Shown here: positions 12,239 through 64,000 of the stretch, piece by piece | Layout of the letters: every line of letters begins with the position of its first letter | How positions within the stretch are numbered: the first letter of the stretch is position 1 | From: Verrucomicrobiota bacterium | GTDB taxonomy: Bacteria; Verrucomicrobiota; Verrucomicrobiia; Verrucomicrobiales; Akkermansiaceae | Reading direction: 5' to 3' | NCBI GenBank assembly: GCA_046051965.1 | Contig: JBJONG010000018.1 | Span: 13,094-77,093, forward strand | DNA length: 64,000 bases | Program-made: the position numbers and the translations under genes | Notes under the pieces: generated by a model | Told to the model about the DNA's origin: nothing | The model's input: only the letters and a program-made list of their open reading frames with translations | The model's database searches: none

Positions 12239-12422
12239 AACAGCGACAAAGAAAAGCGCCATGTCATTCCTATCAGTCTGCTCTCACCATGCCACGCGAC
12301 TTGGCTCTTGACAGCGAATGGTCGGGTCATGTCTCCTCACAGCGTGGGCGGGAGGGACATATGAATCATAAAATTAACAATCACGATGTAATCAACACAT
12401 CACCGGTCCACTCCATCTCCAG

Positions 12423-13487: not shown

Positions 13488-13624
13488 CGACAAACGCCAG
13501 TCCATACATCCTGCCGATCGCCCCAATGTGGTCTCTTCACAGAAACAGTGCCTGATGCGTTCCTACGTCACAGTTTATTCTCTCTTCATAAACTTACGTT
13601 GAGGCTTCCGATTCCTCCGCGCCC

Positions 13625-15257: not shown

Positions 15258-15262
15258 TCCCA

Positions 15263-16387: not shown

Positions 16388-16505
16388 TGATCTTGTTTCC
16401 AGTGCGGCAAGGGCGGCGGCTTGAGTGGGTCGGGCCCGGCGGTATTGGAATCCGCCTTGCCCAGTAATTTTTTTCATGTTGAATCGACTGAGCCAAGGGG
16501 TAGCA

Positions 16506-17870: not shown

Positions 17871-17904
17871 CAAAGTCTGCGGTGGACGAGGAAGCTGAGT
17901 CTGG

Positions 17905-21071: not shown

Positions 21072-21178
21072 GCGATGCTGCCCGCGCTTGCTTTCAAGCG
21101 GCTCCCGGCCGCCTGCTCGCCATCGCCGACTCGCGAAGACTTGCGGGTCTGGAGCCGACCTGTCAGAAACGGGTGACG

Positions 21179-41817: not shown

Positions 41818-41822
41818 ATTTT

Positions 41823-45590: not shown

Positions 45591-45683
45591 GTTTGAATGC
45601 CCTCGTTTACCCCCCTGCCCAGCTTCGGTTTTCATGGGATGATGAATATTCCCCGGCATGATTTTTGGCTAGACTTTTAGGAC

Positions 45684-45706: not shown

Positions 45707-46633
45707 ATGTCAGGAGACCCTCTGCTTAAAAAAGGAATCTCGCTCGAGCGCCTTCATGCCTTCGCAAGCATCGTCTCCAATGGGAGCATCGTGGAAGCGG
45801 CGAAGAGCGATCCCACCCGCCAGAGCCTACTTAGCCGCCAGGTTAAGGAGCTTGAAAGCACGATTGAAATCACACTGCTTGACCGCTCCACCACCCCCCA
45901 CCCCCCAACGGAAGCCGGTAGAAAGTTAGCCCGCTTAATTCAGGATTTCTCCACCGATTTTAGAGATTTCGTAACAACCAACCGCCTCCTGCCCGCGCCG
46001 ATTCTGATTGCATCGAACGAGAGCCTTCTCTCGTGGTTCGTCATTCCAAGGCTCAAGCGTTTGATCGCTGGAGACCAGTCACTCCAGATTGAGCTTCACA
46101 ACCTACGCTCCCCACAAGCGGCGGATTCCCTCCGCACAGGCAAAGTCGATTTTGTCATTCACCACTCATCTGCTGAATTCTCTGATTTCGAAAGCACGCC
46201 CATCGGACACTATGGAGTAAAAGCCTTAGTGCCTCATTCGAAAAAAATTCGCTCGGATTCACCGCTATCCTGGGGCGATTTGCCTCATTGCCCGCTGGCG
46301 CTTTTGGGTGGTTCTGGAAAACTCAGCACGCTTGTAAAGCAACTCGCAGGTGAGACGCCTAACAGGCAGATCATCCATTGTGCCTCCTACAACCAAGTCG
46401 TACGCAGTTGCGCAGAACTTGGCGCTTTGGCAATTCTTCCGGAAATCGCTTGCTTGGGTGTAAAGCCACAAACCCATCTGATCCTTGATCTCAAAGAAAC
46501 CTTGGATTTCAAATACGATGTCCGGCTGTTCTGGAAAAAATCCAGACTCGATAAAAATCTTCTTCTTGGGAAATTTCTAGAAAATTTGTTACGATCAGCA
46601 ACAGGAATTACGGCTCTAAGATTATCGAAATAG
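45707..46633 (+). CDS. LysR family transcriptional regulator
   Basis: N-terminal HTH SLERLHAFASIVSNGSIVEAAK...QSLLSRQVKELESTIEITLLDRS...TEAGRKL and a substrate-binding-type C-terminus (LRTGKVDFVI). Confidence 0.88.
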   Translation: MSGDPLLKKGISLERLHAFASIVSNGSIVEAAKSDPTRQSLLSRQVKELESTIEITLLDRSTTPHPPTEAGRKLARLIQDFSTDFRDFVTTNRLLPAPILIASNESLLSWFVIPRLKRLIAGDQSLQIELHNLRSPQAADSLRTGKVDFVIHHSSAEFSDFESTPIGHYGVKALVPHSKKIRSDSPLSWGDLPHCPLALLGGSGKLSTLVKQLAGETPNRQIIHCASYNQVVRSCAELGALAILPEIACLGVKPQTHLILDLKETLDFKYDVRLFWKKSRLDKNLLLGKFLENLLRSATGITALRLSK

Positions 46634-48679: not shown

Positions 48680-49797
48680 GCGCGTTTTCCAAGATCCTCC
48701 AGCGCAGCCATGAAGGCGTCATAGGCCGCCTGCGGGTTGCGGTAGGGGGAGAAGTAGCTTGTCACCTGGCCGTCGCTGCCGCCTTTGGTGGACATCCAGT
48801 AGAGGTGGTCCGATGACTGGAGCGCACCCCATGCGGCGATGAGTTTTGCGTCGCCGCCGGCCATCACCGGCGTTTCGAGGGAGCGGATTTTCGCGAGCGC
48901 CTCTTTCTGCATCGCGTTGCCCGTCCATGCGGAGAGGTCGCGCTCGGCGTCCGCCCACGAGGTGGCGCGGGGGCAATCGTATTCGCGTATCGCCGGATAG
49001 ATCGCCACGGCCTCGGAGGGCGTGACCCATTGGGAGCCGGATTCGATCAGGATTTCCGGAACTTTCCGCCAGAACTCATAGATGCCCTGCTCCTTTTTCT
49101 GGTGCTCGCCGATCGATTCGTAATCCATGAAAAGGTTCACGAGATCGCCGGGCGATTGGCCGACCCAAGCGGTGAATTTTTCCCACGTCAGCGGGAAGCC
49201 GGACCATGAGGGATCGGAGAAACGGAAGGCGAGGTCGTTGGAAAGCGTGTGGTTGCGCAGCAGGGTCTTGATGCGCGCGGTGTCGGGCGCGCGGTAGAGG
49301 AAGTTGGGGGAAATGCCGTCGGTGAAAGCCGGAGTGCCTTCGGCGATCACGCCATCGAAGCCAAGCGTCTCCGCCCGCGCGGCGATCGCGTTGTCATAGA
49401 TCAGCTCCGAGTTCCGGAACACCTTCGGGCGCACGGAGAAGCACTGCTCCATGAGATCGAGGTGCATGTCGGACTGGCGTTGGAATTCCTTTTCCGAATA
49501 GAGGAAAGCGAGCGAATGATGATACGTTTCCGCGAGCAGCTCCACGCCGCCGGTGGCGACGAGTTCCTGGAAGGACTCCAGCACGTCCGGTCTGAATTTC
49601 CGGAACTGCTCGATGACCGTGCCGGTGAGTGAGAGCGCCATGCGGAACAAGCCGTGGCTTTCCTCGATGCGTTTTCTGAACATGTCGTTGGCGGGCAGGT
49701 AGCACCTGTCGGCCACACGGTTGAGGATCTCGCGGTTGAGCTTTTCATCGAGTCGGTGCGGCTGGTGCACCTGGAAATAGAGGCAAACGTCGGGCAT
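48646..49797 (-). CDS. Glycoside hydrolase family 57 (alpha-amylase-like)
   Basis: YFQVHQP, FRNSELIY (nucleophile Glu), FMDYESIGEHQ (acid/base Asp) and SWADAERDLSAW; start reassigned to MPDVCL. Confidence 0.9.
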   Translation of the reverse strand: MPDVCLYFQVHQPHRLDEKLNREILNRVADRCYLPANDMFRKRIEESHGLFRMALSLTGTVIEQFRKFRPDVLESFQELVATGGVELLAETYHHSLAFLYSEKEFQRQSDMHLDLMEQCFSVRPKVFRNSELIYDNAIAARAETLGFDGVIAEGTPAFTDGISPNFLYRAPDTARIKTLLRNHTLSNDLAFRFSDPSWSGFPLTWEKFTAWVGQSPGDLVNLFMDYESIGEHQKKEQGIYEFWRKVPEILIESGSQWVTPSEAVAIYPAIREYDCPRATSWADAERDLSAWTGNAMQKEALAKIRSLETPVMAGGDAKLIAAWGALQSSDHLYWMSTKGGSDGQVTSYFSPYRNPQAAYDAFMAALEDLGKRAHSQAAVGGVA

Positions 49798-49966
49798 GGG
49801 TTGTGGAGGGTTGGGGAGAAGCGGAGGCCGCCATGAATCGCAGGAGAGAGCAAGGGTGTTGTCGGCTGGCCGATATCCTAATAGCAACACGCAGGCCAAG
49901 GCCAGCCTAACGCTTGATTGGGCGCATGAAACCGCTGAATGGGCGGAGCATATCGGCAACCCCTTC

Positions 49967-50599
49967 TCAGTGATCGAGTTTCAGCTTCTTGAGCTTAGGC
50001 TCTACGACATATTTGCAGTAGCCGTTCTTGGATTTGTTCTGGAAATAGTATCCTTGGTGATAGTTTTCAGCCGGATAGAAAACGGAGGCTTTGGTGATCT
50101 CGGTCACGATGGGCTTGTCGAAGTTTTCCTGCGCCGCCTTTTTCGAGGCTTCCGCCATGGCTTTCTGCGCGTCGTTTTCGTAGAAAATCGCGGAGCGGTA
50201 TTGGGTGCCGATGTCATTGCCCTGGCGGTTGAGCTGGGTGGGGTCGTGGAGATCCCAGAACCAGGCGAGAACCCGTTCCAAGGGGATTTTCTTGGGGTCG
50301 AAAACAACGCGGACGACCTCGGCGTGGCCGGTGGTGCCGGTGCAGATGTCCTCGTAGGTGGGGTCTTTCGTTTCCCCGCCCATGTATCCGGAAACGGCGG
50401 AATGCACGCCGTCGAGTTGATCGTACGCAGCCTCCGCGCACCAGAAGCATCCAACGCCCACGGTAATCACCTCATGGCCTTCGGGGACTTCAGGCATCGC
50501 AGCGGGTTTCTTGTCGTTTTCGTCCATCATTTTCTCGGTTTGGCAGGATGCCAATGTCGGCAACGCGAGGCACAAGGCAAGCAGCAGTTTTTTCATCAT
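49967..50599 (-). CDS. msrA: Peptide-methionine (S)-S-oxide reductase, lipoprotein
   Basis: GCFWCAE, SGYMGG, GTQYRSAIF and AENYHQ; lipobox LASC. Confidence 0.95.
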   Translation of the reverse strand: MMKKLLLALCLALPTLASCQTEKMMDENDKKPAAMPEVPEGHEVITVGVGCFWCAEAAYDQLDGVHSAVSGYMGGETKDPTYEDICTGTTGHAEVVRVVFDPKKIPLERVLAWFWDLHDPTQLNRQGNDIGTQYRSAIFYENDAQKAMAEASKKAAQENFDKPIVTEITKASVFYPAENYHQGYYFQNKSKNGYCKYVVEPKLKKLKLDH

Positions 50600-50711
50600 G
50601 CATCTATGATACGTGGATCGCCGGGAAATTCCTCAAATTTCGTGACCTTGCGCACAGAGCCGAAATGAGTTTTCTTGGAAACCACCCGATACACACTTGG
50701 AACCCAAACCC

Positions 50712-52904
50712 ATGGCCGCCTTCATATCTAGAATCCTTTGCCTGGCTGGAGGCTTTCTTCATTTCGTGGCCGCCGAGACCGTTTCCGAAACGGAGCCCAT
50801 CACCCGTCTGGCGGACATCCGCTTGATGACATCGGCTGAGGCGGCAAAGTCTTTGCCGGTATCCGTAACCGGCGTGGTGACATGGAGTTCCAGGGGGCGG
50901 CTGCCGGGAGGTTTCATGATCGATCAGGACGGGGCGGGCATCTTCGTCATTGGGAAAGGAGTTTCCATAGATGGCGGGAAAGATCCCGAACCGGAGGCGA
51001 ACCCATCCTTGTCCGTGGGAGATCAAGTGGAAGTGGCGGGCGTGACACAGGAGGGCGGATACGCCCCTTCCATTCTTGCCACTAGGATCCGCAAAGTGGG
51101 AAAGGTGGAGATCCCCAAGGGTAGGGATCGGGGATTGGGGCATCTTCTTACCGGCACTTATGATGCCCAGCGGGTGGCGCTCAAGGGCGTGATCACCGGC
51201 TGCCGACCATCCGACTATGGGGATGGCAGCTGGGTCATGGTGCTGGCCGGAGCCAGCGGCAAGGCGCGGGCGGTGGTGCCTGCCATGCCGGGAAAAATGC
51301 CGGAGGAAATGGAGGATGCGGGAGTGCTGATCCGGGGCGTGGTTTTCACACGCCTCAACAGCCGCGGGGAGTTTGTGGGCATCAGCATCGAGACGAACCG
51401 GGTGGAGGATGTGGAAATCTATCGGCCTCGTGTGCCTGATCCCTTTGAAGTGCCGTTGCTGGAAGCCGGGCGGCTGCGTGCCTTTGTCCCGAGCGGCTAC
51501 TCCCAGCATCGCCGCCGCATCGAGGGCGTGGTGACTTTGTCGAAACCCGGAGTCCTGTATTTGCAGGGGCCGAAGGGAGGCACCCGGGTGTCCACCCGCT
51601 CGCTGGAACAGGTTTATGCCTTGGGCGATGTGGTGGAGGCGGCCGGATTTGTGGAGACCTATCTGGGTGCATCCGAGCTGGCCGGTTCGCTAACCCGCAG
51701 GAAATCGCCGGGAGAACCGATTGCACCGGTGGTTCTAGCCCTTCCTGAAACGGCGGATCTGGGCGAGTTCGATGGCAAGCTGGTGCGCATTCGCGGGGTG
51801 GTTCTGGAAAGCCATCTATCGCCGGATGGCGTCGAGATGTTGCTGTCGGATGCGGGTCAGTCATTCGAGGCATTGCAGTTGAAATCATCGCCTGGCGCAC
51901 CCTTGCCAATCCCCGGCTCGGAAGTTTCCGTGACCGGTGTGGCGGAGATGACCTATGATCTGGGCGCGTATTTTCCGGATAGAAACACGGTTTCCCGCGT
52001 GCGCATCCTGTCGCGTGTCCCTGCTGACATCGTGATCCACAGCGTGCCGCCTTGGTGGAATACCCGCAGGCTGCTCATCGCCCTTGGTCTCGCTGTCGCC
52101 ATCGCGGCGCTTCTGGGCGGTGCGGCCCTGCTGCTGATGCGGCGCGTGCGTGCGCAAGCGAACCAGCTCGCGAGCGAGGCGCTGACGCACCGCCAGGTCA
52201 CCGCCGCCCATTCCGCGATACTGGAGGAGCGCGCGCGCCTTGCGGGGGAGATGCATGATGGTTTGCAGCCGATGCTTTCCGGGCTTTCGTTCTATCTCGA
52301 TGCGGCGGATGCGAAATGGAGGGATTCCGCGAGCGAAGGCGTGGGTGAGGCCCTGGATAAATCCCGCACGCTGCTCACCCGTATCCGTGATGAGTTCCGC
52401 CAATGCATCTGGTGCCTCTACGAGCTGGGCCGGCAGACAGGTGATTTGGACAACGAGCTGCGGCGGCTCGCGAGAATCCAACGCCAGTGGAGCCGCGCCG
52501 AGGTGAACACGGAAATCTCAGGCGAGCCCTTCCCGCTTCCCGCCAGCATTTCGAGAGGCCTGTTGCTGGCCTGCCAGGAGGCGGTGGAAAACGCCTCGCG
52601 CCACGGCAAGGCGGAGAAGATTGATATCCATTGCGGATTCTCGGCGGACGGGCTGGAAATCGAGGTGAAAGACGATGGCTGCGGATTTGACGTCCTCGCC
52701 GCCGCCCATGTGCCGGGAAACCACATTGGCCTGGCAAGCATGAGGCAACGGATTGAAAGACTGGGCGGGGTGCTGAACGTTACCAGCGCACCAGCCTTGG
52801 GAACCCGCCTGAAAATGAGCCTCAGCCGCGAGCGCATCGCCCGGGTGGAGACAAACCCGCTTTTGATGTCATCACCCCCTCCTGAAAACGAAAACAACCC
52901 GTGA
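50712..52904 (+). CDS. Sensor histidine kinase (HisKA_3/NarX-type) with a large repeated extracytoplasmic domain
   Basis: Signal peptide, TM helix, ERARLAGEMHDGLQP (H-box), EAVENASRHG, DDGCGFD and HIGLASMRQR. Confidence 0.92.
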   Translation: MAAFISRILCLAGGFLHFVAAETVSETEPITRLADIRLMTSAEAAKSLPVSVTGVVTWSSRGRLPGGFMIDQDGAGIFVIGKGVSIDGGKDPEPEANPSLSVGDQVEVAGVTQEGGYAPSILATRIRKVGKVEIPKGRDRGLGHLLTGTYDAQRVALKGVITGCRPSDYGDGSWVMVLAGASGKARAVVPAMPGKMPEEMEDAGVLIRGVVFTRLNSRGEFVGISIETNRVEDVEIYRPRVPDPFEVPLLEAGRLRAFVPSGYSQHRRRIEGVVTLSKPGVLYLQGPKGGTRVSTRSLEQVYALGDVVEAAGFVETYLGASELAGSLTRRKSPGEPIAPVVLALPETADLGEFDGKLVRIRGVVLESHLSPDGVEMLLSDAGQSFEALQLKSSPGAPLPIPGSEVSVTGVAEMTYDLGAYFPDRNTVSRVRILSRVPADIVIHSVPPWWNTRRLLIALGLAVAIAALLGGAALLLMRRVRAQANQLASEALTHRQVTAAHSAILEERARLAGEMHDGLQPMLSGLSFYLDAADAKWRDSASEGVGEALDKSRTLLTRIRDEFRQCIWCLYELGRQTGDLDNELRRLARIQRQWSRAEVNTEISGEPFPLPASISRGLLLACQEAVENASRHGKAEKIDIHCGFSADGLEIEVKDDGCGFDVLAAAHVPGNHIGLASMRQRIERLGGVLNVTSAPALGTRLKMSLSRERIARVETNPLLMSSPPPENENNP

Positions 52905-53542
52905 TGACCGCTCACCATCCACACCCGGCAAAACCCGCCATTTCCCTGATGATCATCGAAGATCATTCGGTCACCCGGGACGGATTGCGCATGATGTTGG
53001 AGTCTGTCGGCCTGCGCGTGGTCGGCGAGGCGGAGGATGCGGCGGCGGCCTCGATGGCTTTCAAGGAATGCAAGCCCGACATCACGCTTGTGGACATCCG
53101 CCTCGGCAGCGGGCCGGATGGCATCGATGTCGCCGTGGCGCTCCGTCAGATTGACCCGAAGTGCAAGATCATCATGTTCGCGTCCGACGCCCTTGAGGCG
53201 GATCTCCACCGCGCCCACAAAGCCGGCGCCTGCGGATTCCTCGTGAAAACCCAGCCCCGGGACGCCATCATCCAGGCGATCCTCGACGCGCACAGGAACG
53301 GTGTCTGCCATCCTTACGACCGCACCGACGCCACTCCGCTGGAGCCGCTGACGGAACGTGAAATCGATGTCCTGGAAGAGCTCCGCCGTGGCCTGACCAG
53401 CGCGGAGATCGGCCGTGTGCTCGATCTCAGCGAGCACACGATCAAGACCCACCTGAAAAGCATTTTCGCCAAACTCCACGCCGCGGACCGCACCGAGGCG
53501 GTGGCCGCCGGATTTCAGCTCGGTTATCTGCGCGTGAACTGA
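52901..53542 (+). CDS. NarL/LuxR family response regulator
   Basis: IIEDH, TLVDIRL (phospho-Asp), GFLVK and HTH LTEREIDVLEELRRGLTSAEIGRVLDLSEHTIKTH. Confidence 0.95.
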   Translation: MMTAHHPHPAKPAISLMIIEDHSVTRDGLRMMLESVGLRVVGEAEDAAAASMAFKECKPDITLVDIRLGSGPDGIDVAVALRQIDPKCKIIMFASDALEADLHRAHKAGACGFLVKTQPRDAIIQAILDAHRNGVCHPYDRTDATPLEPLTEREIDVLEELRRGLTSAEIGRVLDLSEHTIKTHLKSIFAKLHAADRTEAVAAGFQLGYLRVN

Positions 53543-53593
53543 TCCCGCCCGCTTTCGTTGAATGAAATCCGCATTCTGGAACGTTCCGCTGGC

Positions 53594-54592
53594 ATGAAAC
53601 GGATAACGGGTGTCGCGATCACCCTTCTAGCGATGGTTTTCCAGGTCTTTGCCGGGGAATATGCATTCGTCACTTCGCCGGCTTACATGGAGCTGGTGAA
53701 CATCCCGCGCACGGCACCTGCGGATTGGCGTGAGCAGAGCGGGGCGGTGTTCATGAACCGGGAATGGGAGAAAGATCCCGGCAGGAAATGGTATGTGGAA
53801 ACACAGCGGGACGGCGGACGCTGGGTGCAGTCCGGGCTGGCACACCGGAACGGGGAGTCGGTCGAATGGGGCTTGAAGCAGTTGGAATGGGGCTTCGCCA
53901 GGATGAAGGAGGATGGATCGTTCGATTGTGACGATGCGTTCCATAGCGCCAGTTTTCTCGTGGAGACCACCGCCCACTCGATCCTGCTGATCGAGGCCTC
54001 GCCCATGGCAGGCAGATTCCAGGCGCGCGTCGATGCCCTGAAGAAACCGTTGCTGAAGTGCGCCTTGTGGATGGCATCACCCGTGAATTTCAGGGCGGCG
54101 GAAAACCAGCGGATCTACGGGCACCGGCGATTTTTGGTAGGCTGCGGTTTGATGCAGAGCGCCTTGATCCATGACCATCAGGAGCTGCGGCGGGTCGCCC
54201 TTTACTTCATACAAGATGGCATCCGCCTTCAACGTCAGGATGGCGCGTTTCCGGAAAAAGGCGGGCATGACAGCAGCTACCACGCGGTGGCGCTGATCTA
54301 CCTCCAGCGCCTCTTGCTGGTGACGCCCGAGGAATTTCAACAGCCATCATGGCTTCCCGCCGCCCAGCGCGGCAACGCATGGCTTATATCCAGGATCGAT
54401 CCGCAGGGAGTGGTGAGCGTGAAAGGAAACACGCGCACCGGAAGCGGCCAGGAAGTGGGGCGGACCGGAACCCCGAAGACGGTCAGCCGACCCGAGGTCG
54501 CCACCGCCCTGCTTTATCAAAGACAACTCGGCGGCGGGGAGCCGCTTGAAAAACTCGCGGCTCTGGTGCTACGGGCTGCTGAGGAGCCGTAG
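53594..54592 (+). CDS. Secreted hypothetical protein, probably alpha-helical toroid fold
   Basis: Signal peptide MKRITGVAITLLAMVFQVFA; repeated helix-xDG-x motifs (KEDGSF, RQDGAFPEKGGHDSSY, DPQG). Confidence 0.7.
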   Translation: MKRITGVAITLLAMVFQVFAGEYAFVTSPAYMELVNIPRTAPADWREQSGAVFMNREWEKDPGRKWYVETQRDGGRWVQSGLAHRNGESVEWGLKQLEWGFARMKEDGSFDCDDAFHSASFLVETTAHSILLIEASPMAGRFQARVDALKKPLLKCALWMASPVNFRAAENQRIYGHRRFLVGCGLMQSALIHDHQELRRVALYFIQDGIRLQRQDGAFPEKGGHDSSYHAVALIYLQRLLLVTPEEFQQPSWLPAAQRGNAWLISRIDPQGVVSVKGNTRTGSGQEVGRTGTPKTVSRPEVATALLYQRQLGGGEPLEKLAALVLRAAEEP

Positions 54593-54612
54593 TATCGCTC
54601 GTTCGAGCGATT
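54593..54612. promoter_or_regulatory. Palindromic operator, copy 1
   Basis: TATCGCTCG-TT-CGAGCGATT, intergenic. Confidence 0.75.
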
Positions 54613-54638
54613 GACGGGATCGCGGGATTCCATGAAAT

Positions 54639-54902
54639 ATGAAAGTATTCATGGAAACCCGACCCATATCCCACATCCGCCACTGTGGCCATGCGCTTGT
54701 CGATTTGTTGGTCGTGATTCCGATCCTCGCCCTCCTTTCACTCCTCATGCCCACCCGGTTTAGGGAATCGGCGGACAAGGCGGTTTCCGTGCGGAGTATC
54801 GCCGATCGGGCGCATGCGAGCATTCCAAAGCAAGTTCCGGCAGACGATGCGCCGCTGATGGGTATCACCGGGCACCACCCGGTTATTTGCCGACACATAT
54901 GA
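54639..54902 (+). pseudogene. Degenerate prepilin-type N-terminal methylation domain ORF
   Basis: GHALVDLLVVIPILALLSLLMP..RESADKA resembles G|FTLVELLVVIAIIAILAALLxP..ARE.A; F+1 is His, E+5 is Asp, and the ORF is short. Its stop overlaps the next ATG. Confidence 0.5.
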
Positions 54903-57900
54903 AAAATGCACTTTCACAGCATCCCCGCCTCGACCATGTCCAAGGCGGCTTCGCTTTGATTGTCACTCTCAGCCTGATGGTGCTGCTCTTCATACTCGCC
55001 GTAGGGCTGTTCACTCTCTCATCCGTCACGCTGCGCAGTGCATCGCAATCCACAAACAACGAACAGGCACGCGCCAACGCCCGGCTGGCACTGATGCTGG
55101 CGATAGGTCGCGTGCAGTCCCTCGCCGGCCCCGATACGCGGATCACCGCACCGCGCGTGCCGGATGATTCATCGTTGGATTTGAACTCCGTGACTCCCGC
55201 CTACGGTGTCTGGCGCAGCTGGGAGGGAACGGATCATGAAGTGACCGGCCCATCCGCAGGCCGACCTCTCAAGCCGGACTATGCCTCAAAAAAATCCGCC
55301 ACTGGCGCGGGCGGGCGCTTTCTCGGCTGGCTGGTTTCATCGGCGGAGGGCGTGGCCCCCGATCCAGCGGTGGTTCCAGATCTGCAAAGCGAAGCGGCCA
55401 CAGGATTCGTGCCGCTCGTTGCGAGTGGCAGCGTGACCGATCCCAAGCGCCGGGTTTTCCTCAAGCCTACTCCGGTCAGGGCGACGAACACCGCCACGGG
55501 AACCCTCGGTTGGTGGGTTGGCGGCGAGAACAGCAAGGCCAACATCGCTCCAGACGTCAAACCCACGGCAGATGACACGATGGCCTGGCTGGAACGGGCC
55601 CGTGCGCACGCGGTGCCATCGCCCAAAGCCTTCGGACTCAGCGGGGCTCCTGACATGGCTTTGCCCAGCACAGGCTCACTCATGCTCGCCGCCACCGACG
55701 CAAGTGCCGCGAAAGGAAACTTCCATGATGCCACCGTCTGGGCTGCCGGACTACTCACCAATGCCGCCACGGGAGGCTGGAAACGCGACCTCTCGCTGAT
55801 GACGGAAAAATATGACGAACTGTCCGCCACCGGCCTGCCTTTCTTCACCCTCAAGCCGGGGCAACAACAAACATTTTCCAAAGCCGCACCTGCCCAGACC
55901 ACCCCTTTGGCCCACCCGCCCAACCCGCTTCTTTACGCGTGGTCCCAATACTCGGCCGCCCCCTCCGCAGGCAGCTTTAGCCAGATCCCGCCGATCGTGA
56001 GCTGGGACTACCTGCGCCGTGCCTGCGTCCAGTACAAGAATCTCATCGCTCTCAACCCGTCCAGCGGACGTGTCGGCATGCCGTGGGCTCTGGAAAGCTG
56101 GTGGAACAACGGCACCCCGAACCGCCAATACCGCTACGAGTTCCTTGACCAACCTCGCCGCTGGCCCGCACTCAGCCGCATCTATTTCATGTTCTCATTC
56201 GCATCCATCCCGGATGCCGCCAATCCCGCAAACCTCAAGGCCGCCCTCGTGATGAACCCGGTCATTGTCTTGTGGAATCCCTACAACGTCGAGATCACCC
56301 TCGACGCGCCTCGACGCTATGTAGTCAACACGGTGGGTCTGGAATTTTTGCCAATCAAGTTCAGCTTCACCGTCGGCTCCACCAAATATCCCGCCCTCAG
56401 CTTCAACCAGATCGGCGGCATCGGGAACATCGACATGCGTCTGATCGGCGGACTCAGCGGTGAATCCACCACCCTCAGTCCCGGTGAAACCCGTGTTTTC
56501 AGCCTCAAGGACAACACTCTGGTGGATGGGGGAACGAACACCTACAAGTATATGGATCTTTATCCGGGCTACCGCACCTACGGAGGATTCCAATACACGA
56601 GAATCGGCCCTTCTAACACAGAGGTTTCCGCTCCCAAGGACTCGGACTTCAAGGTGGATCTGACATTCGATGCGAAGATCAGCAAAGACGGACGCAGTGG
56701 ATACGGTTCGGCTCTCGATTTCGGTTATCATACTCTGGGAGGCAACAGCACAGACAACAACTTCTCCCACCGTGCCAGCCGACAATACCTGATGTTCAGC
56801 CAGCAGGCCGCCACGCAACTCTGGCCACCCATCGCCGCTGTCGATCTACCCTCTTGCAAGCTTTCCGAGGTGCAGGGTCATACCAAAAACCGCCTTTTCG
56901 CCAGCGGCGTGGTCGGCTTCCGTACCGCCAACGATGCGGTTGTGCCAAGCATCGGCTACGCGCAGGCCAACCCGCTCAACTACTTCAACGATCTCAGCAA
57001 CACCGCGTCAACAATGGGTGCCGGCACCCTGCATCCCGCAAATTCCAGCTACGACATCCAGTTCATCAACGGGGGTGATATCAGCGCCCGCCCGAACGTG
57101 GAGCCATTCACCCACCGTGGCTACATCGTCAGCGGCCTTGACGCCTCGTCCGGCCTCACCCGTTGCTCGGTCGCCGAGATCCCGACACGTCCGGTTCAGA
57201 GTCTCTGCGATCTCCAGCACTTCGACCTGCGCAATTGCAATCCCGTGCCGCCTTTCCAGTTCAATATCTTCGCCAACAGCCAGGCCTCACCTTTGATGCC
57301 GCCAGACCAGGTGATCCGCCCGGATTTCGTCGATACCAAACGCATGCAGCACGACGATGCCTACTGTCTCAACCACGTGTTTTTCGATGACTGGTTCGTC
57401 TCCTCCATTGCCCCGGATCTCAAGGACTGGACGAGCCAGGCCGAGCGCACGCTGGATGTGGTGTATAAGGATTTCCTGCGTCATTCCAGCGATCCGAATA
57501 CCGGCTCCCCGCTTCCCAACCGCATGTTTCGCCCCACCTCGGAAGCCGTGAGCCCTAACCCTGACACGGCCTATGATCGCGACGTGAAACCTGCGGATTC
57601 TTACCGCCACATAGCCTCTAAGCTCAGCGTCGATGGCATGTTCAACGTCAACAGCACCTCGGTGGCGGCATGGCGCGCCCTGTTGGGTCACGCGCTCGGC
57701 CAGCGGCAGCCCTACCTCACCGAGACCGGAACAAGCTGGAATGTGTCACTGGCACCGGAGCGCGACAACGTTGTCAGCCGCATGAGCGTGGCCGGTGGCG
57801 GCGCGGCTGGGTTCGATGCCGCACCTACAGGGAATTTTGCAGATGCCTTGGAGTTTTCCGGCCACCGGGCGCTCACCGACGAGCAGCTCGATGCCCTCGC

Positions 57901-58498
57901 CGAGGAGATCGTCAGGCAAGTCCGCTTGCGGGGGCCGTTCCTTTCGCTCTCGGAATTCATCAACCGTCGTCTCAGCTCCTCAAGCAGCGAGGTGCAGCTC
58001 GCCCTCGCCGGTGCCGTTCAGGCCGCCCTCGACGCACTGGCCGCACGCGGCACAACGGATCCCAAAAACCCATACCGGGAACTCCAAAAGAACTCCGACA
58101 AGATCACGCCAGCATTGATTCCCGCAATAGCCGATGCGAATTACCTTTTCAGTAAAGCCGCCGAGGGCTGGACGGCCAACGGCCTGCCCGGCTGGATCCG
58201 CCAAGCCGATATCCTCCGCCCGCTCGCGCCGGTGCTTTCCGTCCGCGACGACACCTTCGTGATCCGCGCCTACGGCGATGCCCGCGACACCCAGGGAAAC
58301 ATCACCGCCAGCGCCTGGTGCGAGGCCATCATCCGGAGAAACCCGGAGTTTGTCGATCCAAGCGATGCGGCCACCGACACACCCGTCCTCGGAACCGATA
58401 GCACTACCGAGAAATTCCTCCAATCCGCCGCCAATGAGCGGTTCGGGCGGAGATTCACCATCGTTTCCTTCCGCTGGCTCAACGCGGATGAGGTCTAG
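54899..58498 (+). CDS. Large PilX/GspK-like minor-pilin-type protein (Verru_Chthon cassette protein A-like)
   Basis: G|FALIVTLSLMVLLFILAVGL (prepilin-like, no Glu+5), ARANARLALMLAIGRVQSLAGPDTRITA, and C-terminal PGWIRQADILRPLAPVLSVRDDTFVIRAYG...FGRRFTIVSFRWL. Confidence 0.75.
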   Translation: MKNALSQHPRLDHVQGGFALIVTLSLMVLLFILAVGLFTLSSVTLRSASQSTNNEQARANARLALMLAIGRVQSLAGPDTRITAPRVPDDSSLDLNSVTPAYGVWRSWEGTDHEVTGPSAGRPLKPDYASKKSATGAGGRFLGWLVSSAEGVAPDPAVVPDLQSEAATGFVPLVASGSVTDPKRRVFLKPTPVRATNTATGTLGWWVGGENSKANIAPDVKPTADDTMAWLERARAHAVPSPKAFGLSGAPDMALPSTGSLMLAATDASAAKGNFHDATVWAAGLLTNAATGGWKRDLSLMTEKYDELSATGLPFFTLKPGQQQTFSKAAPAQTTPLAHPPNPLLYAWSQYSAAPSAGSFSQIPPIVSWDYLRRACVQYKNLIALNPSSGRVGMPWALESWWNNGTPNRQYRYEFLDQPRRWPALSRIYFMFSFASIPDAANPANLKAALVMNPVIVLWNPYNVEITLDAPRRYVVNTVGLEFLPIKFSFTVGSTKYPALSFNQIGGIGNIDMRLIGGLSGESTTLSPGETRVFSLKDNTLVDGGTNTYKYMDLYPGYRTYGGFQYTRIGPSNTEVSAPKDSDFKVDLTFDAKISKDGRSGYGSALDFGYHTLGGNSTDNNFSHRASRQYLMFSQQAATQLWPPIAAVDLPSCKLSEVQGHTKNRLFASGVVGFRTANDAVVPSIGYAQANPLNYFNDLSNTASTMGAGTLHPANSSYDIQFINGGDISARPNVEPFTHRGYIVSGLDASSGLTRCSVAEIPTRPVQSLCDLQHFDLRNCNPVPPFQFNIFANSQASPLMPPDQVIRPDFVDTKRMQHDDAYCLNHVFFDDWFVSSIAPDLKDWTSQAERTLDVVYKDFLRHSSDPNTGSPLPNRMFRPTSEAVSPNPDTAYDRDVKPADSYRHIASKLSVDGMFNVNSTSVAAWRALLGHALGQRQPYLTETGTSWNVSLAPERDNVVSRMSVAGGGAAGFDAAPTGNFADALEFSGHRALTDEQLDALAEEIVRQVRLRGPFLSLSEFINRRLSSSSSEVQLALAGAVQAALDALAARGTTDPKNPYRELQKNSDKITPALIPAIADANYLFSKAAEGWTANGLPGWIRQADILRPLAPVLSVRDDTFVIRAYGDARDTQGNITASAWCEAIIRRNPEFVDPSDAATDTPVLGTDSTTEKFLQSAANERFGRRFTIVSFRWLNADEV

Positions 58499-58568
58499 AT
58501 CTTTTCCAAAAGTAAGATCTTCCCTCTGTGTTCTCAATGCTCGCTGTGGTCAAAAATTTTCACAACCC

Positions 58569-59255
58569 ATGATCATCCCTCGCACCTTCCTTTTCCTAAC
58601 AGCCGCCCTGTTCCTCATTGTCCCCACGATGGCGCAGGAGCGAAGTCTCCGCGCCGTTTTTTTCAAGCGCCCGCCGGATATGCCGGAAACTGCCGTGCTC
58701 TACCATCCGGCAACCAGCATCGAGGTGGAATTACCGCCGATGAATTTGTCAGAACCGGTAGCCATCCCTGCGGGCGATCTGGTCTTCGCCCTCCTGCCGC
58801 AGGCACCGCAGTCCGGTGTTCCGATCCCGCCGGGCGCACCCCAGATCAAGGTGCCTGCCGCATGGCAGCGGGTGATCCTGCTGTTTTTCCCCGATCCGGG
58901 TAACAAGGTTTTTCCTGTCAGAGTACTGCCGGTGAATGGTTCTCTGGATCATTTCAAACCCGGTGATCTGCTCTGCTTCAATCTTTCCACCGCAGAGATC
59001 GCAGGCACCCTGGGCGAGGCGAAATTCCGCATCACCCCGGGGAAATCCGCCATCGTCAAACCCTCAAGCACGGAGTCCGGTGATTACCCGGTCGCCATCG
59101 ACTGCCTGCTGCCCGGGGAGACGCGTCCGAGTCCACTCTGCCGCACCACCTGGAGGCACGATACCGGGATCCGGCAGCTCCTCTTTATCGTCAACACAAA
59201 CGACCGCCCCGCCCCACGCATCTGGGCCATTTCCGAAACCGTAACCCCGAAGTGA
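58569..59255 (+). CDS. Secreted hypothetical partner protein (beta-rich)
   Basis: ATG at 58569 inside ORF 58278..59255; signal peptide MIIPRTFLFLTAALFLIVPTMA; follows the PilX-like gene. Confidence 0.7.
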   Translation: MIIPRTFLFLTAALFLIVPTMAQERSLRAVFFKRPPDMPETAVLYHPATSIEVELPPMNLSEPVAIPAGDLVFALLPQAPQSGVPIPPGAPQIKVPAAWQRVILLFFPDPGNKVFPVRVLPVNGSLDHFKPGDLLCFNLSTAEIAGTLGEAKFRITPGKSAIVKPSSTESGDYPVAIDCLLPGETRPSPLCRTTWRHDTGIRQLLFIVNTNDRPAPRIWAISETVTPK

Positions 59256-59395
59256 ATCGAAGCGGGGACTCACGTGAACTCTGAAGCAGGTCAACCGCTC
59301 CGGGGTGGCCGCAGCCCCGCCGTATCCATCCAGCTCTACGGCGGGAGATCCGAGGAAAAAATGCGCCAGTTTGCTGCTCCGGGCAAAAGGATTAA

Positions 59396-59415
59396 TATCC
59401 CTCGTACGAGCGATA
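59396..59415. promoter_or_regulatory. Palindromic operator, copy 2
   Basis: TATCCCTCG-TA-CGAGCGATA, intergenic. Confidence 0.8.
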
Positions 59416-59518
59416 GGTTTTAACCGCGTTGTGCAACTAACTAGGGCTTGCGATAGCCCTAGAAACCCAGTTCCTAGAGCCGCAGGCGACTCCACACACA
59501 CCGATCTCGAAAATATTC

Positions 59519-60343
59519 ATGAAAACCATCCTCTCTTTCTTCGTCTTGCTCCTGCAAAGCGTCAGCATCGCATCGGCTCACGACACAACGACCACTCCTG
59601 ACAAGGGCGTCGGCATGAAGGTGCTGGTGTATTCGGATACCGGCTACTATCGCCATCCCGAAATCCCGGCGATCAATCGCTGGCTGGTGTTGCTTGGTCA
59701 TGAAAACGGCTTCGAGGTGGATGTTACCGAGCATTGGAAGGACATGCAGCCCGAGGTGCTCTCGAATTACGACGTGTTGATTCTGAACAATGCCAACGAA
59801 CTCGACAAAGTGCTGCCGGAGCCGCAGCGCAAGGCCGTGGAAGACTGGTTTGCCACGGGCAAGAAAGGGATCGTGGGGCTGCACGCCGCACTGGTGCACC
59901 AGAAGAATTGGCCGTGGTTGAATGCGCTCGGTGGCTGCGATTTCAATAGCGACTCGGACTTCAGCAAGGCCAGGGTCACGATCGATCCCGCAGCGAAGGA
60001 ACATCCCAGTGTCAAGGGGCAGCCGGCCGAGTTTTGGATCGAAGCCGACTGGACCAACCACGATGAATCCGTCACCGGAAAGCCTGGCTTCAATGTGCTC
60101 ATGCGGGTGGACGAGAGCACATACACACCGGTGCGCGAGTACTTCCAAACCCGCAACGGAAAGCCGATGGGCGCAGATCATCCCATCGCCTGGACGCATG
60201 AACCCGAAGGCGGCGGCCGTTTCTTCTACACCGAGTTCGGACACGATCTTCGCTCCCTTAAAACCCCCTTCGTGCGCCAACATATCCTCGAAGCCATCAA
60301 GTGGACTGCGCATATGGCGGTGCCGCTGGAAAAAACGAAGTGA
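59519..60343 (+). CDS. ThuA-like (class I glutamine amidotransferase-like) domain protein, secreted
   Basis: KVLVYSDTGYYRHPEIPA, GIVGLHAA, DHPIAW and GRFFYTEFGH; signal peptide. Confidence 0.88.
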   Translation: MKTILSFFVLLLQSVSIASAHDTTTTPDKGVGMKVLVYSDTGYYRHPEIPAINRWLVLLGHENGFEVDVTEHWKDMQPEVLSNYDVLILNNANELDKVLPEPQRKAVEDWFATGKKGIVGLHAALVHQKNWPWLNALGGCDFNSDSDFSKARVTIDPAAKEHPSVKGQPAEFWIEADWTNHDESVTGKPGFNVLMRVDESTYTPVREYFQTRNGKPMGADHPIAWTHEPEGGGRFFYTEFGHDLRSLKTPFVRQHILEAIKWTAHMAVPLEKTK

Positions 60344-60370
60344 CTCCGGATTTTGACTGCGGAGCAGAAA

Positions 60371-60390
60371 TATCCCTCGTTCGAGCGATA
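60371..60390. promoter_or_regulatory. Palindromic operator, copy 3
   Basis: TATCCCTCG-TT-CGAGCGATA, intergenic. Confidence 0.8.
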
Positions 60391-60528
60391 TGTTCTAACC
60401 GATTCAGGCACTAGGCTTTTCCTTCCGTTGTCGGAAGGAGACAATTTCCTGCATTCGCAGGCGAATGAGTGGTTTTCCTGCAAAGGATTTTCCCAGCGGA
60501 TCAAACCCACACCCAACGACGCACGAAC

Positions 60529-62976
60529 ATGCCTACCCGTTTCTCCAAACCCCAAAGATCGCCTCTTTTCGTAGATTCACTCCGTCGCTGGCTTCCATGG
60601 GTGAGTCTGCTCATGTTTGCCGCCTCCCTCCATGCCGCCGCGCCCCCGGATACCGTCCTCTCCGGCGAGCCGGTCACGTGGAATTCCTGGCAACCCGTCC
60701 GCGACGCCTCCGACATCAGCCGGAACGGCACCGCCGACCGCGCCTACTCCTTCGGCACGCATCCCGATCCGATTGAAATCGGCGGGTTGAAATTCCTCCC
60801 GTTCGCATCCCAGAAAAACGACACGGCACCCGGCTTCACCGAGTCTTCCGCCGAGCACGGCTCGTCTTCCGGCCCTTTCGCCAAGCTTCCCCCCGCGTAT
60901 CGCGATCTCCTGAAGGGCGCCGTCGGTGCAAAATCGGGTAAAGCTTCGCTGAAACTCACCCGCCTGCGCCCCGGGCAGTGGTATGAAATCCAGCTCTGGA
61001 GCAACGACTCCCGCCCGGAAGCCTGCGGATTCTCCCAACGCGTCAGCGGATCCCCGTTTCTCCATTTCCACCCCGGCGGCGCCGCGGACAAGCCCGCGCA
61101 GGACGGCAACCTCGGAACCCGCATCACCGCCATCTTCCTCGCCCGCGAGTCCTCACAAACCCTCGATTTCACCGCCGCCGCGCCTAAGGGGAAATCCCCT
61201 CGCTGCCTCATCAACGCCCTCCAGCTCCGTGCCATCCCCGCCCCGGATCCCTTGCTCGTCGCCTACAAACAACGCCGCCAATACGTCCTCAACAGCTACA
61301 TCGATGGCAAGGCCCGCTCGTCCTTCCGCTTCACCAACGTCTCCCTCGATTTCGCCACCGGACAGATCGAAAAAGCCCGCGCAAGCTCTCTCGCAGAATC
61401 CCGCTGGATGAAATCGAAGGGCTACACCTTCGATCTCTGGCCCGCCGTCGATATGTGCATCCGCTGGAAGCCTTATCTCCACGCCGAAACCCGCGAAAAC
61501 ATCCGGGGCCGCCTGAAAACCATCAACTACCGCACTCCCGGCACCGCCAACCTTTCCATGCTCGCATGGGTCATCCGCTACCTCGGCTCCGAGGAATTCG
61601 GCGAGGAATCCTTCGAGCACCCGAAAAACGACCGCAAGCCGGACGATCCGAACACCCGCAACACCCTCCGTGACCGCTTCATGGATCAGGCCAAGGAGGG
61701 CTGCCGCGAGTTCGCCTCCTCCGACTACGGCTGGCTCAACATCCTTCCCATGCTCACCGTCGCACAGCTCGCGAAGGATCCGGAAATGAAACGCACCGCG
61801 GAAGTTTCCTTCACCGCCTGCATGGCCCAGCTTGCTCCCGTTTGGCAAAAGGAAGGCTACATCGGCATCTGGTCCTCGCGGAATTACGAGGAACAGGGAG
61901 GGCACCTCGGCAGCCTTGGCCGCTACCTCTGGCTCTGCTTCGGATCCGGGCCGCGCTTCCGCCCGGACTACAAGGAATGCAAGGAAATGGGCCTCTTCGC
62001 CGCCATGGACTACGAGCCTTCCCTTTCCCTGCTCCACGCCGCCGCCGACCGGGATGCCGTCTATCTCTCCAGAAGCCGCGGCGATGGCTTCCAGTCCGCC
62101 TATGTATGGAAAGACGAGTTCATCCTCTTCAGCCATCAGGACAATCGCGCCGCCGGCAGCGGTTGGTGCTACGGATACGGCGTCCGCTGGAAGGGCATGA
62201 AAAATTTCTTCTCCCTCGTGAAACCCGCCACCGCCGATCAGAAAAAACTCCGCGCCGCCGCCAACCACGGGAAAATGGGACTCGATTTCGCCACCGTCCA
62301 ACACCGCGATGCCGTCCTCTTCGCCTTCGACATCAGCCACCCCGGCTCCCGCGATCCGCGCCACGCCATGGGCAATATCCCCGGCGGCCACCTCGCCATG
62401 TTTAACGACGCCGCCACCGAGGGCAGGATCTTTCTCCACTACGGCCCGGTGATGATCGCACTCAGCTCCGACGTGAAATTCCAGTGGGATCCGGCCAAAC
62501 CACCCCTGACCGCCCGCAGCAAACCCCAGCCCGGAGACTCCCAGATCCACATCGCAAGCCCGTCCTTCGCCGCACCCAGCCCCACCGACAACCGCTTCGC
62601 CATGGCCATGGAGGTAGCCCACCCCAGCGAATTCCCCGCCGCCACCCCGGAGGCGCAGCTCGCCGCCTTCCGCACCCTCATCCGGGCGAAAACGAAGGTC
62701 TCCCACACTCCCGGCACCACCCCCACCATCGGCCGCTACGTCACCCGCCGCGGCGATGTCCTCATCAAGCAAGCCCCCGATCCCAAACGCCGCAACATGC
62801 CCGCCAGCATCAACGGGAAAACCATCGATTACAAAAACTGGCCCATGCTCGAGAACCCGTGGATGAAACAGGACGCCCACGGCGGCCCCCTCACCATCAA
62901 CGGCGGCGGCCAGCAGACCACCCTCGACTTCAAGAACTGGACGATGAAGCACACCGCCGCGAAAGCTTCCCGTTGA
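60529..62976 (+). CDS. Secreted multidomain hypothetical protein (beta module + helical domain + beta-sandwich), possibly glycan-active
   Basis: Signal-like segment ending ASLHAA; module LTRLRPGQWYEIQLWSNDSR; host-like high-GC codon use; start uncertain (60529 or 60613). Confidence 0.7.
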   Translation: MPTRFSKPQRSPLFVDSLRRWLPWVSLLMFAASLHAAAPPDTVLSGEPVTWNSWQPVRDASDISRNGTADRAYSFGTHPDPIEIGGLKFLPFASQKNDTAPGFTESSAEHGSSSGPFAKLPPAYRDLLKGAVGAKSGKASLKLTRLRPGQWYEIQLWSNDSRPEACGFSQRVSGSPFLHFHPGGAADKPAQDGNLGTRITAIFLARESSQTLDFTAAAPKGKSPRCLINALQLRAIPAPDPLLVAYKQRRQYVLNSYIDGKARSSFRFTNVSLDFATGQIEKARASSLAESRWMKSKGYTFDLWPAVDMCIRWKPYLHAETRENIRGRLKTINYRTPGTANLSMLAWVIRYLGSEEFGEESFEHPKNDRKPDDPNTRNTLRDRFMDQAKEGCREFASSDYGWLNILPMLTVAQLAKDPEMKRTAEVSFTACMAQLAPVWQKEGYIGIWSSRNYEEQGGHLGSLGRYLWLCFGSGPRFRPDYKECKEMGLFAAMDYEPSLSLLHAAADRDAVYLSRSRGDGFQSAYVWKDEFILFSHQDNRAAGSGWCYGYGVRWKGMKNFFSLVKPATADQKKLRAAANHGKMGLDFATVQHRDAVLFAFDISHPGSRDPRHAMGNIPGGHLAMFNDAATEGRIFLHYGPVMIALSSDVKFQWDPAKPPLTARSKPQPGDSQIHIASPSFAAPSPTDNRFAMAMEVAHPSEFPAATPEAQLAAFRTLIRAKTKVSHTPGTTPTIGRYVTRRGDVLIKQAPDPKRRNMPASINGKTIDYKNWPMLENPWMKQDAHGGPLTINGGGQQTTLDFKNWTMKHTAAKASR

Positions 62977-63136
62977 AACAGGCATGTATAGTAAACGGCG
63001 GCACGCCCGTGCGAAGCAACCTTGGACTGCTGCAGTCCAGGGACTTCGTCTCCAAGCGCGCTCAAAGGCGCACTTGTCTTTGGCCGGATCCCCTAGGGCA
63101 ATCCGCCTTTTCCCCGGGATGTTCCCGCGCACGAAA

Positions 63137-63156
63137 AACCCCTCGTACGAGGGATA
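63137..63156. promoter_or_regulatory. Palindromic operator, copy 4
   Basis: AACCCCTCG-TA-CGAGGGATA, intergenic. Confidence 0.75.
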
Positions 63157-63240
63157 CCGGATTCCGCAGCATTCGACTAAATCTAATTCGCAGCGCGGAC
63201 TCATAACTCCGCTTCTCCAATCTCCACCAAAACAAACTAG

Positions 63241-64000
63241 ATGAAACCTCGCTACAATCCATTCCTCCGCATACAATACCTTGCAATGCTGTGCGCAGCA
63301 GCGATCCCCGCCACCGCCGGCACGCTCCAGTGGGATGCAAATGCCGGAACTACTGGCACTTCCGATGCGCCAGCCGCTTGGAACGGCGTTGACGCTCGCT
63401 GGTTGGACGGCTCCACAAACGTGGTTTGGGCGGATAACAGCGATGCCCAGTTCGGCACCGGCACCACGGGCACTGCGGGTGCCGTTACCATCGGCACAAT
63501 CGACCCTACCGTAAACAGCATCACTTTCAACGCGGCTTCCGGAGGAGGCAACTTCAACATCACCGGTCGCACAATCAACCTGCTCAACGCCAGCACGGAT
63601 ATCACAGCCAATAGCGGCGACCATACGATCACTTCGAGCCTCGCCGGTATCGGTAAGGGCATCAACAAAAAGGGCGCCGCACAAGTGCGTCTCGCGGGCG
63701 CCATCACATACACCGGAACCACGACCATCACCGCTGGCACCCTGCGCGTCAACAGCGGCGCGAACACCCTTTATTCCAGCACTTCCGGTTTCTCCATGGC
63801 CGGTGGAAGCCTTGTCATCAGCGCTGGCTCAACCCAAAACATCGCCAAGGATTTCACCTTTTCCAGTGCCAGCGGAGACATCACCACCTTTGATGGACTC
63901 GGTAATACCGGCCACGCACTTGGCGGCACGATGACCATCAACAACGGTGCCGTCATGGCCATCCGTCCTCGCAATGCAAACGCGGGAGCGACCATGGTCA
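63241..64000 (+). CDS. Autotransporter-associated beta-strand repeat (PATR) surface protein, 3'-truncated by the window edge
   Basis: Absent from the ORF track (no stop in window). ATG at 63241 gives MKPRYNPFLRIQYLAMLCAAAIPATAGTLQWDANAG..., with PATR GINKKGAAQVRLAGAITYTGTTTITAGTLRV. Confidence 0.88.
   Translation, partial: MKPRYNPFLRIQYLAMLCAAAIPATAGTLQWDANAGTTGTSDAPAAWNGVDARWLDGSTNVVWADNSDAQFGTGTTGTAGAVTIGTIDPTVNSITFNAASGGGNFNITGRTINLLNASTDITANSGDHTITSSLAGIGKGINKKGAAQVRLAGAITYTGTTTITAGTLRVNSGANTLYSSTSGFSMAGGSLVISAGSTQNIAKDFTFSSASGDITTFDGLGNTGHALGGTMTINNGAVMAIRPRNANAGATMV

Follow-up and report, generated by a model that had tools for sequence, protein, structure and literature searches.

Within the 64,000-nt stretch of contig JBJONG010000018.1 analysed here (hereafter the window), four plus-strand units follow a kinase-regulator unit, and a 20-bp palindrome, TATCSCTCG-WW-CGAGSGATA, precedes each of them. 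This palindrome is probably the operator through which the NarL/FixJ-type response regulator encoded next to it (52901-53542) would activate the promoters of an island of glycan-degradation and surface-protein genes. The motif itself, its exclusivity, its co-occurrence with orthologues of the regulator and a fixed distance to a -10-like hexamer carry this assignment, and together they give a sound basis for predicting the regulon of this uncharacterised two-component system.

The four copies of the palindrome, which start at 54593, 59396, 60371 and 63137, are as follows.

54593-54612, no strand assigned: site 1, TATCGCTCGTTCGAGCGATT, 32.7 bits; it starts at the base after the stop codon of a 344-aa gene, and its last two bases open a -35-like TTGACG
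59396-59415, no strand assigned: site 2, TATCCCTCGTACGAGCGATA, 33.4 bits
60371-60390, no strand assigned: site 3, TATCCCTCGTTCGAGCGATA, 33.4 bits
63137-63156, no strand assigned: site 4, AACCCCTCGTACGAGGGATA, 27.0 bits

A scan of the window at up to three mismatches to TATCSCTCGTWCGAGSGATA found only these four sites, versus 0.02 expected from shuffled sequence, and the 10-bp core CTCGWWCGAG likewise occurred only at them. Using a weight matrix built from 16 non-redundant sites, the window copies scored 27-33 bits, all other window positions scored below 8 bits and the best of 30 shuffles reached 16 bits. The gap between 27-33 bits and less than 8 bits elsewhere in the window therefore indicated that the motif is all-or-none, with no continuum of weaker matches. 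All four copies are intergenic and each lies upstream of a plus-strand gene. An earlier sequence-only reading of this DNA had described four 20-bp palindromes, none elsewhere in the window, each intergenic and upstream of a plus-strand unit; its sequences and coordinates match ours and its description is borne out by the mismatch, core and matrix scans and by the gene context. The string GTTYTAACCG, which it had noticed in common to copies 2 and 3, was indeed present only there.

The proposed binder is encoded in a three-gene stretch that ends at site 1.

50712-52904, plus strand: sensor histidine kinase (Pfam HisKA_3 and HATPase_c), with an N-terminal signal or transmembrane segment, a periplasmic domain of ~440 aa and a second transmembrane segment
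52901-53542, plus strand: NarL/FixJ-type response regulator, the proposed palindrome binder (Pfam Response_reg 2.4e-20, GerE 2.3e-16)
53558-54592, plus strand: 344-aa protein, secreted or membrane-anchored, encoded after the regulator and before site 1, which its stop codon abuts

The start codon of the regulator overlaps the stop codon of the kinase, so that the two genes are translationally coupled. The regulator fell below the cut-off of every named NCBIfam equivalog (91 bits versus 250 for the NarL equivalog), and its best solved relatives are ChrA, VraR, NarL, DesR and DevR. The 344-aa protein had no Pfam or NCBIfam match; a 90%-identical homologue stands at the same position in locus L173 only and is absent from the other eight loci. 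Its gene is probably the last of the kinase-regulator unit, and the protein may serve the two-component system as a lineage-specific accessory. Divergent from this plus-strand unit lies msrA (49967-50599, minus strand; PMSR, E 3e-64), which is also called in L173. A 290-aa plus-strand open reading frame at 49796-50668 was rejected as a gene since it is a shadow of msrA.

The structure predicted by AlphaFold for the periplasmic part of the kinase (encoded at 50712-52076) consists of four tandem OB-type barrels (pLDDT 88), and its best structural matches by Foldseek are multi-OB proteins. Other proteins (P0190, P0191) carry homologous sensor domains joined to PAS and GGDEF outputs. OB folds bind oligosaccharides and nucleic acids. 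Because OB folds bind oligosaccharides and the targets include secreted glycosidases, an oligosaccharide is a reasonable guess, and nothing more, for the extracellular cue that the modelled sensor would detect.

The orthologue group of the regulator (P0001-P0036) shows 68-90% identity, with the next-best match at 42%. The DNA around ten orthologues from different samples and species was compared (L122 with L040, L124, L125, L127, L128, L129, L130, L131 and L173), kinase identity across the ten loci being 66-83% and regulator identity 71-90%. The window derives from an uncultured freshwater bacterium, whose nearest named relatives are Luteolibacter metagenome-assembled genomes; identical contigs were present both in Logan assemblies of freshwater metagenomes and in a JGI metagenome, and the runs found to contain the region were DNA metagenomes only. 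The palindrome was found beside the kinase-regulator pair in 10 of the 10 loci. Eight of them have a site no more than 300 bp from the stop codon of the regulator or the 344-aa gene, the site starting at the TGA of the regulator in four loci. Two copies were present in each of L124, L127, L128 and L129, one that begins at the regulator's TGA stop (weak in L128) and another ~200-1600 bp beyond it; in L125, L130 and L131 a single copy lies 50-250 bp past the regulator; and L173, the closest relative, which shares the 344-aa gene, has the palindrome just after that gene, as in the window. One contig of Luteolibacter sp. EUL_220 (L122 and L040) carries four copies upstream of the regulator gene, at distances of 7.3 and 5.7 kb in L122 and of 25 and 21 kb in L040. 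Since the EUL_220 sites are spread over 25 kb, the regulon appears to be island-scale and not limited to adjacent genes. The term "local", by which the regulon had first been described, has to be read as island-scale, since the sites can span at least 25 kb in a relative.

In the ~250 kb scanned, all matches at up to three mismatches were intergenic and within regulated clusters. The genes behind the sites varied from locus to locus and included a GH29 alpha-L-fucosidase, GH106, a GH79-GH95 pair, a GFO/IDH/MocA (GFO_IDH_MocA) oxidoreductase, PATR proteins, PA14/Big_9/PKD giants and pilin-like proteins, whereas the kinase-regulator pair was the only gene set common to all ten loci. Because the downstream genes vary, what is conserved is the motif together with the kinase-regulator pair, and not one promoter. 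A motif scan of relatives was the check put forward with the sequence-only reading; its outcome, a palindrome beside the pair in every orthologue locus and only in intergenic positions, supports the proposal that the adjacent regulator binds the palindrome.

Downstream of the palindrome, a -10-like hexamer recurs at a fixed distance. The pattern nAnnnT was found at site positions 42-47, starting 21 nt after the palindrome, in 8 of the 16 non-redundant sites, whereas 0 of 2000 shuffles gave as many; at any other offset it occurred in at most 4 of the 16, and several further sites fit with a 1-nt shift. The CTA-containing AT-rich patch reported ~21 nt after copies 2-4 is therefore real, and is one instance of a general feature. 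The window sequences at this offset are listed below.

54634-54640, plus strand: putative -10-like GAAATA or AAATAT after site 1, offset 21-22 nt
59437-59442, plus strand: CTAACT at the -10 offset after site 2, a weak match
60412-60417, plus strand: -10-like TAGGCT after site 3, offset 21 nt
63178-63184, plus strand: -10-like TAAATC or AAATCT after site 4, offset 21-22 nt

If the hexamer is the -10 element, transcription would start at about site position 54 and the centre of the palindrome would lie at -43.5. The predicted centre at about -43.5 places the site just upstream of the -35 element and 2 bp into it. Site positions 19-24, which lie 17 bases upstream of the hexamer, read TTGACG, TTGTCG and TTGCCG in the regulator-proximal sites, which end in GATT-G, and are poor as a -35 element in the other sites (TAGGTT, TACCGG, TAGCGG). 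In the regulator-proximal class the ATG follows the palindrome by 36-38 nt whatever the gene (38 nt in the window, 54612-54651). The genes with this constant spacing are the pilin-like open reading frame of the window, the fucosidase gene of L124, L127 and L129, and the oxidoreductase gene of L122; the corresponding stretches from site to ATG include the following.

L124, 10657-10694: regulator-proximal site to ATG of the fucosidase gene
L129, 10612-10649: regulator-proximal site to ATG of the fucosidase gene
L122, 2753-2790: regulator-proximal site to ATG of the oxidoreductase gene

Were the predicted promoter right, mRNAs of this class would have leaders of ~3-5 nt. For the first target of the window, the start would fall at ~54646-54648, 3-5 nt before the ATG at 54651, and the mRNA would be nearly leaderless.

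This geometry bears on whether the regulator activates or represses. In Escherichia coli, NarL acts as an activator from a position of -43.5 at yeaR and of -44.5 at ogt (PMC10853779), and the suggestion that the palindrome is a NarL/LuxR-type site just upstream of -35 agrees with the centre predicted here from the fixed-offset hexamer. Activation is the likeliest mode because the -43.5 centre is the NarL position at yeaR, and it is further favoured because the -35 elements are weak in most sites, as in activator-dependent promoters. The same regulator might instead bind the palindrome as a repressor, its dimer occluding sigma region 4 until the cue relieves repression. The 2-bp reach of the site into the predicted -35 hexamer would suit such occlusion, and the good -35 elements of the regulator-proximal sites might fire without an activator. 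However, the poor -35 elements of most sites and the yeaR-like position both point to an activator. Phosphorylation normally enables DNA binding in the NarL/FixJ family, and this usual order of events fits induction by a substrate cue. We accordingly regard repression as unlikely.

The palindrome could also be bound by a factor encoded elsewhere, such as a regulator with global control over glycan use; the palindrome would then stand beside the kinase-regulator pair only because both reside in glycan-utilisation islands. Some sites lie far from any regulator seen: one EUL_220 site (in L040) is 25 kb from it on the same contig, and L035, a short Luteolibacter contig, has a match to the palindrome with no regulator within 3.5 kb, so that a distant factor is conceivable. 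The counts, moreover, are confined to the 64-kb window and the ~250 kb scanned. Against such a factor stand the sharing of the kinase-regulator pair by all ten loci, the proximity of the sites to the stop codon of the regulator or the 344-aa gene, and the finding that no other DNA-binding gene recurs across the compared loci; the other regulator of the window, of LysR type, lies 8 kb upstream with no site nearby. Binding by an unrelated factor is thus quite improbable in our judgement. The distant EUL_220 site and the L035 match nevertheless weigh against the assignment of the palindrome to the adjacent regulator as an activator operator, as do two results from the window, in which no palindrome was found upstream of the kinase gene and a strict sigma-70 consensus scan found no promoter at the sites. 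On these results, two readings were rejected for the window: autoregulation through a site 5′ of the kinase gene, and sites that themselves carry a canonical sigma-70 promoter as judged by the strict consensus.

Wider scans were also made. An 18-mer scan of a genome collection returned at least 118 matches, nearly all of them chance or coding matches in Actinomycetota and Gaiellaceae; two relevant ones were found among the matches listed, both in Luteolibacter metagenome-assembled genomes, and two other verrucomicrobial matches, in L087 (Udaeobacter) and L095, had no kinase or regulator nearby. None of the 39 matches of a 20-mer metagenome scan stood beside an orthologue of the regulator, in a collection evidently without recent freshwater assemblies of this lineage; these matches were coding sequence (for example before a conserved ...HVMHIVSG... 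peptide) or longer hairpins. Separately, two contigs from one study's metagenomes carry the motif TATCCCTCG-WW-CGAGGGAT(A/T) at L143 64-83 and 1879-1898 and at L146 868-887. Two of these three copies extend to a 26-bp palindrome, GCATATCCC...GGGATATGC; one copy lies upstream of a gene for a secreted F5/8-type-C/FN3 protein and one upstream of a gene for an ankyrin-repeat protein, with no regulator in view.

The anatomy of the motif was derived from the 16 non-redundant sites. Palindrome positions 2-19 read A-T-C-S-C-T-C-G-W-W-C-G-A-G-S-G-A-T, in which C4, C6, T7, C8 and G9 are invariant (16 of 16), as are their mirror positions, with position 17 (G in 15 of 16) the only exception. Seven of the ten symmetric position pairs are complementary in 13-16 of the 16 sites, forming an inverted repeat suited to a symmetric dimer. 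In contrast, S5 and S16 are complementary in only 6 of 16, with no compensatory change; since the two are uncorrelated, each half-site takes C or G independently, which is tolerable to a protein dimer and not to a selected hairpin. The RNA folds of the four window sites were no stabler than those of shuffled sequences (z -0.2 to -1.4), the best fold at site 2 leaving the palindrome unused, and no T-tract follows the palindrome on the transcribed strand at the sites. An intrinsic terminator and a repetitive extragenic palindromic (REP) element were rejected on these three grounds, the latter, with dispersed palindromic repeats in general, also because no copies were found in the other 54 kb of the window or in flanks away from regulated clusters over the ~250 kb scanned; the scatter regardless of gene orientation that had been named as the refuting case was not seen in either. 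Hence, although a near-perfect inverted repeat between same-strand genes, a site 1 that abuts a stop codon and a site 4 whose minus-strand reading satisfies a simple terminator rule would suit a nucleic-acid structure (a terminator, a REP-like element or an mRNA hairpin between plus-strand genes), the few and unscattered copies, the invariant sequence of each arm, which structure alone would not need, and the fold, T-tract and S5/S16 results leave this explanation hardly any credence.

Specificity was considered through the recognition helix and the paralogues. Among the orthologues this helix, SEHT(I/V)KTHLK, does not vary. In L171, where a 42%-identical regulator has the same kinase-regulator-PATR layout, AACCCCTATTTCTAGGGATA stands directly after the regulator's stop codon (10656-10675); it has the same outer heptamers and spacing as the window motif, with the inner six bases changed. 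In L172, a 31%-identical paralogue is accompanied by a different palindrome, ATTGTCCGATCGGACAAT (9985-10002), which lies between a divergent PATR gene and the gene of its kinase, and which adjoins a PATR giant and four sulfatase genes. These are single cases, both in the direction that would be expected if each regulator read the palindrome beside it, and the occurrence of paralogous pairs with palindromes of their own suggests a family of island-specific systems. More tentatively, and with rather less than even confidence, we propose that the pair described here is the founding member of a widespread class of glycan-island regulators in Verrucomicrobiota and planctomycetes. Such a class would combine a four-OB kinase and a NarL-type regulator with its own 20-bp 7-6-7 palindrome directly after the regulator gene, and with nearly leaderless or activator-dependent promoters of genes for carbohydrate-active enzymes (CAZymes) and PATR adhesins.

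The predicted elements of the system (binding by this regulator, an activating role at the operator, the start sites and the signal) would fit together as follows. The periplasmic tandem-OB sensor kinase (50712-52904) would detect an extracellular cue, probably an oligosaccharide, and phosphorylate the regulator (52901-53542), whose dimer would then bind one 20-bp inverted repeat per promoter. Each half-site, T-A-T-C-S-C-T-C-G, would present a NarL-like outer heptamer, TATCCCT, with the two heptamers 6 bp apart. Located near -43.5 and abutting a weak -35 element, the dimer would activate sigma-70-type promoters and thereby an island of secreted glycan-degrading and surface proteins.

The predicted target units in the window are listed below, with their genes where a unit holds several.

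54651-59255, plus strand: target unit 1, three genes (translations; gene calls in L120)
54651-54902, plus strand: first gene of target 1, an 83-aa prepilin-like open reading frame with a GHALVDLLVV motif
54899-58498, plus strand: second gene of target 1, a 1199-aa protein with a pseudopilin-like N-terminus, translationally coupled to the 83-aa open reading frame by an ATGA overlap
58569-59255, plus strand: third gene of target 1, a 228-aa secreted protein
59519-60343, plus strand: target 2, a secreted ThuA-like protein (Pfam ThuA, E 3e-47)
60529-62976, plus strand: target 3, an 815-aa secreted protein of unassigned function
63241-64000, plus strand: target 4, a PATR (autotransporter-associated beta-strand repeat) surface protein (Pfam PATR, TIGR02601), cut by the window end and continuing in L119

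The N-terminus of the 1199-aa protein gave weak matches to the type II secretion system minor pseudopilin GspK and to Verru_Chthon cassette protein A, and the 815-aa protein of target 3 has a 49%-identical homologue within the regulated cluster of L125.

Other features of the window lie apart from this island. The minus strand at 35836-45659 encodes a 1993-aa protein with DEAD, Helicase_C and MZB domains, which matches Druantia DruE (PADLOC, E 3e-183) and is preceded by a 1278-aa protein without a family match; the two look like a Druantia-type anti-phage system. The G+C content of this region is 0.51-0.54 versus ~0.60, and a divergent LysR regulator gene lies at 45707-46633. A Kps-like capsule cluster at 10910-24706 comprises two Capsule_synth genes and genes for a Wza-like exporter, an ABC-2 transporter and GT4 glycosyltransferases, and is followed by an IS200-like transposase open reading frame (25753-26817). 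An AAA_14/DUF4143 ATPase at 4278-5420 (minus strand) matches the PADLOC candidate system PDC-S01 (E 2e-82), and a Schlafen/AlbA_2 protein at 30565-32487 gave weak matches to Argonaute-associated models.

Verrucomicrobiota are abundant glycan degraders of fresh water, soil and gut, and to our knowledge, and in the literature searched, the transcriptional control of their polysaccharide degradation is almost unstudied. The same searches found no paper containing the motif string or describing a verrucomicrobial NarL-type regulator of glycoside hydrolases, in line with the earlier impression that the motif was undescribed. From sequence alone, a candidate regulator, its operator and its target promoters can thus be named here. 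The conservation of the palindrome yields a weight matrix for regulon prediction in any Luteolibacter-like genome, and the tandem OB folds are a candidate oligosaccharide sensor domain to deorphanise, whereas the general view of two-component regulation is unchanged by this system.

Among known systems, NarL binds heptamers of consensus TACYYMT in 7-2-7 sites of 16 bp. The half-site TATCCCT fits six of the seven positions of that consensus as commonly given, but the heptamers here are 6 bp apart (7-6-7, 20 bp) instead of 2 bp, and the inner CG-WW-CG is invariant. NarL proper was rejected on this spacing and on the equivalog score given above, and if the proposed class is real, the 6-bp spacing would imply a dimer geometry on DNA unlike that of NarL. 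The sensor, too, is a tandem-OB periplasmic one and not a NarX-type nitrate sensor, and the targets are glycan-degrading and surface proteins. The likeness to the E. coli system lies in a REC and GerE regulator paired with a HisKA_3 kinase and in a dimer on a heptamer inverted repeat whose centre, for NarL, lies at -43.5 or -44.5 and so a little upstream of the -35 element (PMC10853779), such binding and such a position being predicted here. In layout, the closest parallel is the DosR (DevR) box of Mycobacterium tuberculosis, TTSGGGACTWWAGTCCCSAA (a string that occurs in PMC2275270), which is a 20-bp palindrome with a WW centre. That box is bound by a NarL-family regulator, and DevR is among the solved relatives of the window regulator; the half-site sequence, however, is unrelated, the DosR kinases are cytoplasmic haem sensors and the DosR regulon serves hypoxia and dormancy. 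The lux and tra boxes of LuxR and TraR are inverted repeats of 18-20 bp at about -42 to -45, from which dimers with GerE-type helix-turn-helix domains activate promoters with weak -35 elements. They resemble the present sites in length, in predicted position and in the type of DNA-binding domain of the proposed regulator, and differ in an unrelated box sequence and in regulators with acyl-homoserine-lactone-binding domains instead of receiver domains. Finally, polysaccharide utilisation loci of Bacteroidota have dedicated regulators (hybrid two-component systems, SusR, and extracytoplasmic function sigma and anti-sigma factors) that likewise pair a sensor beside a CAZyme island with a repeated cis-element per promoter, but the outputs of these regulators are of AraC type or sigma factors, whereas the system here, in Verrucomicrobiota, has no SusC/SusD pair. 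If the proposed class holds, its members would be the functional counterpart of the Bacteroidota hybrid two-component systems.

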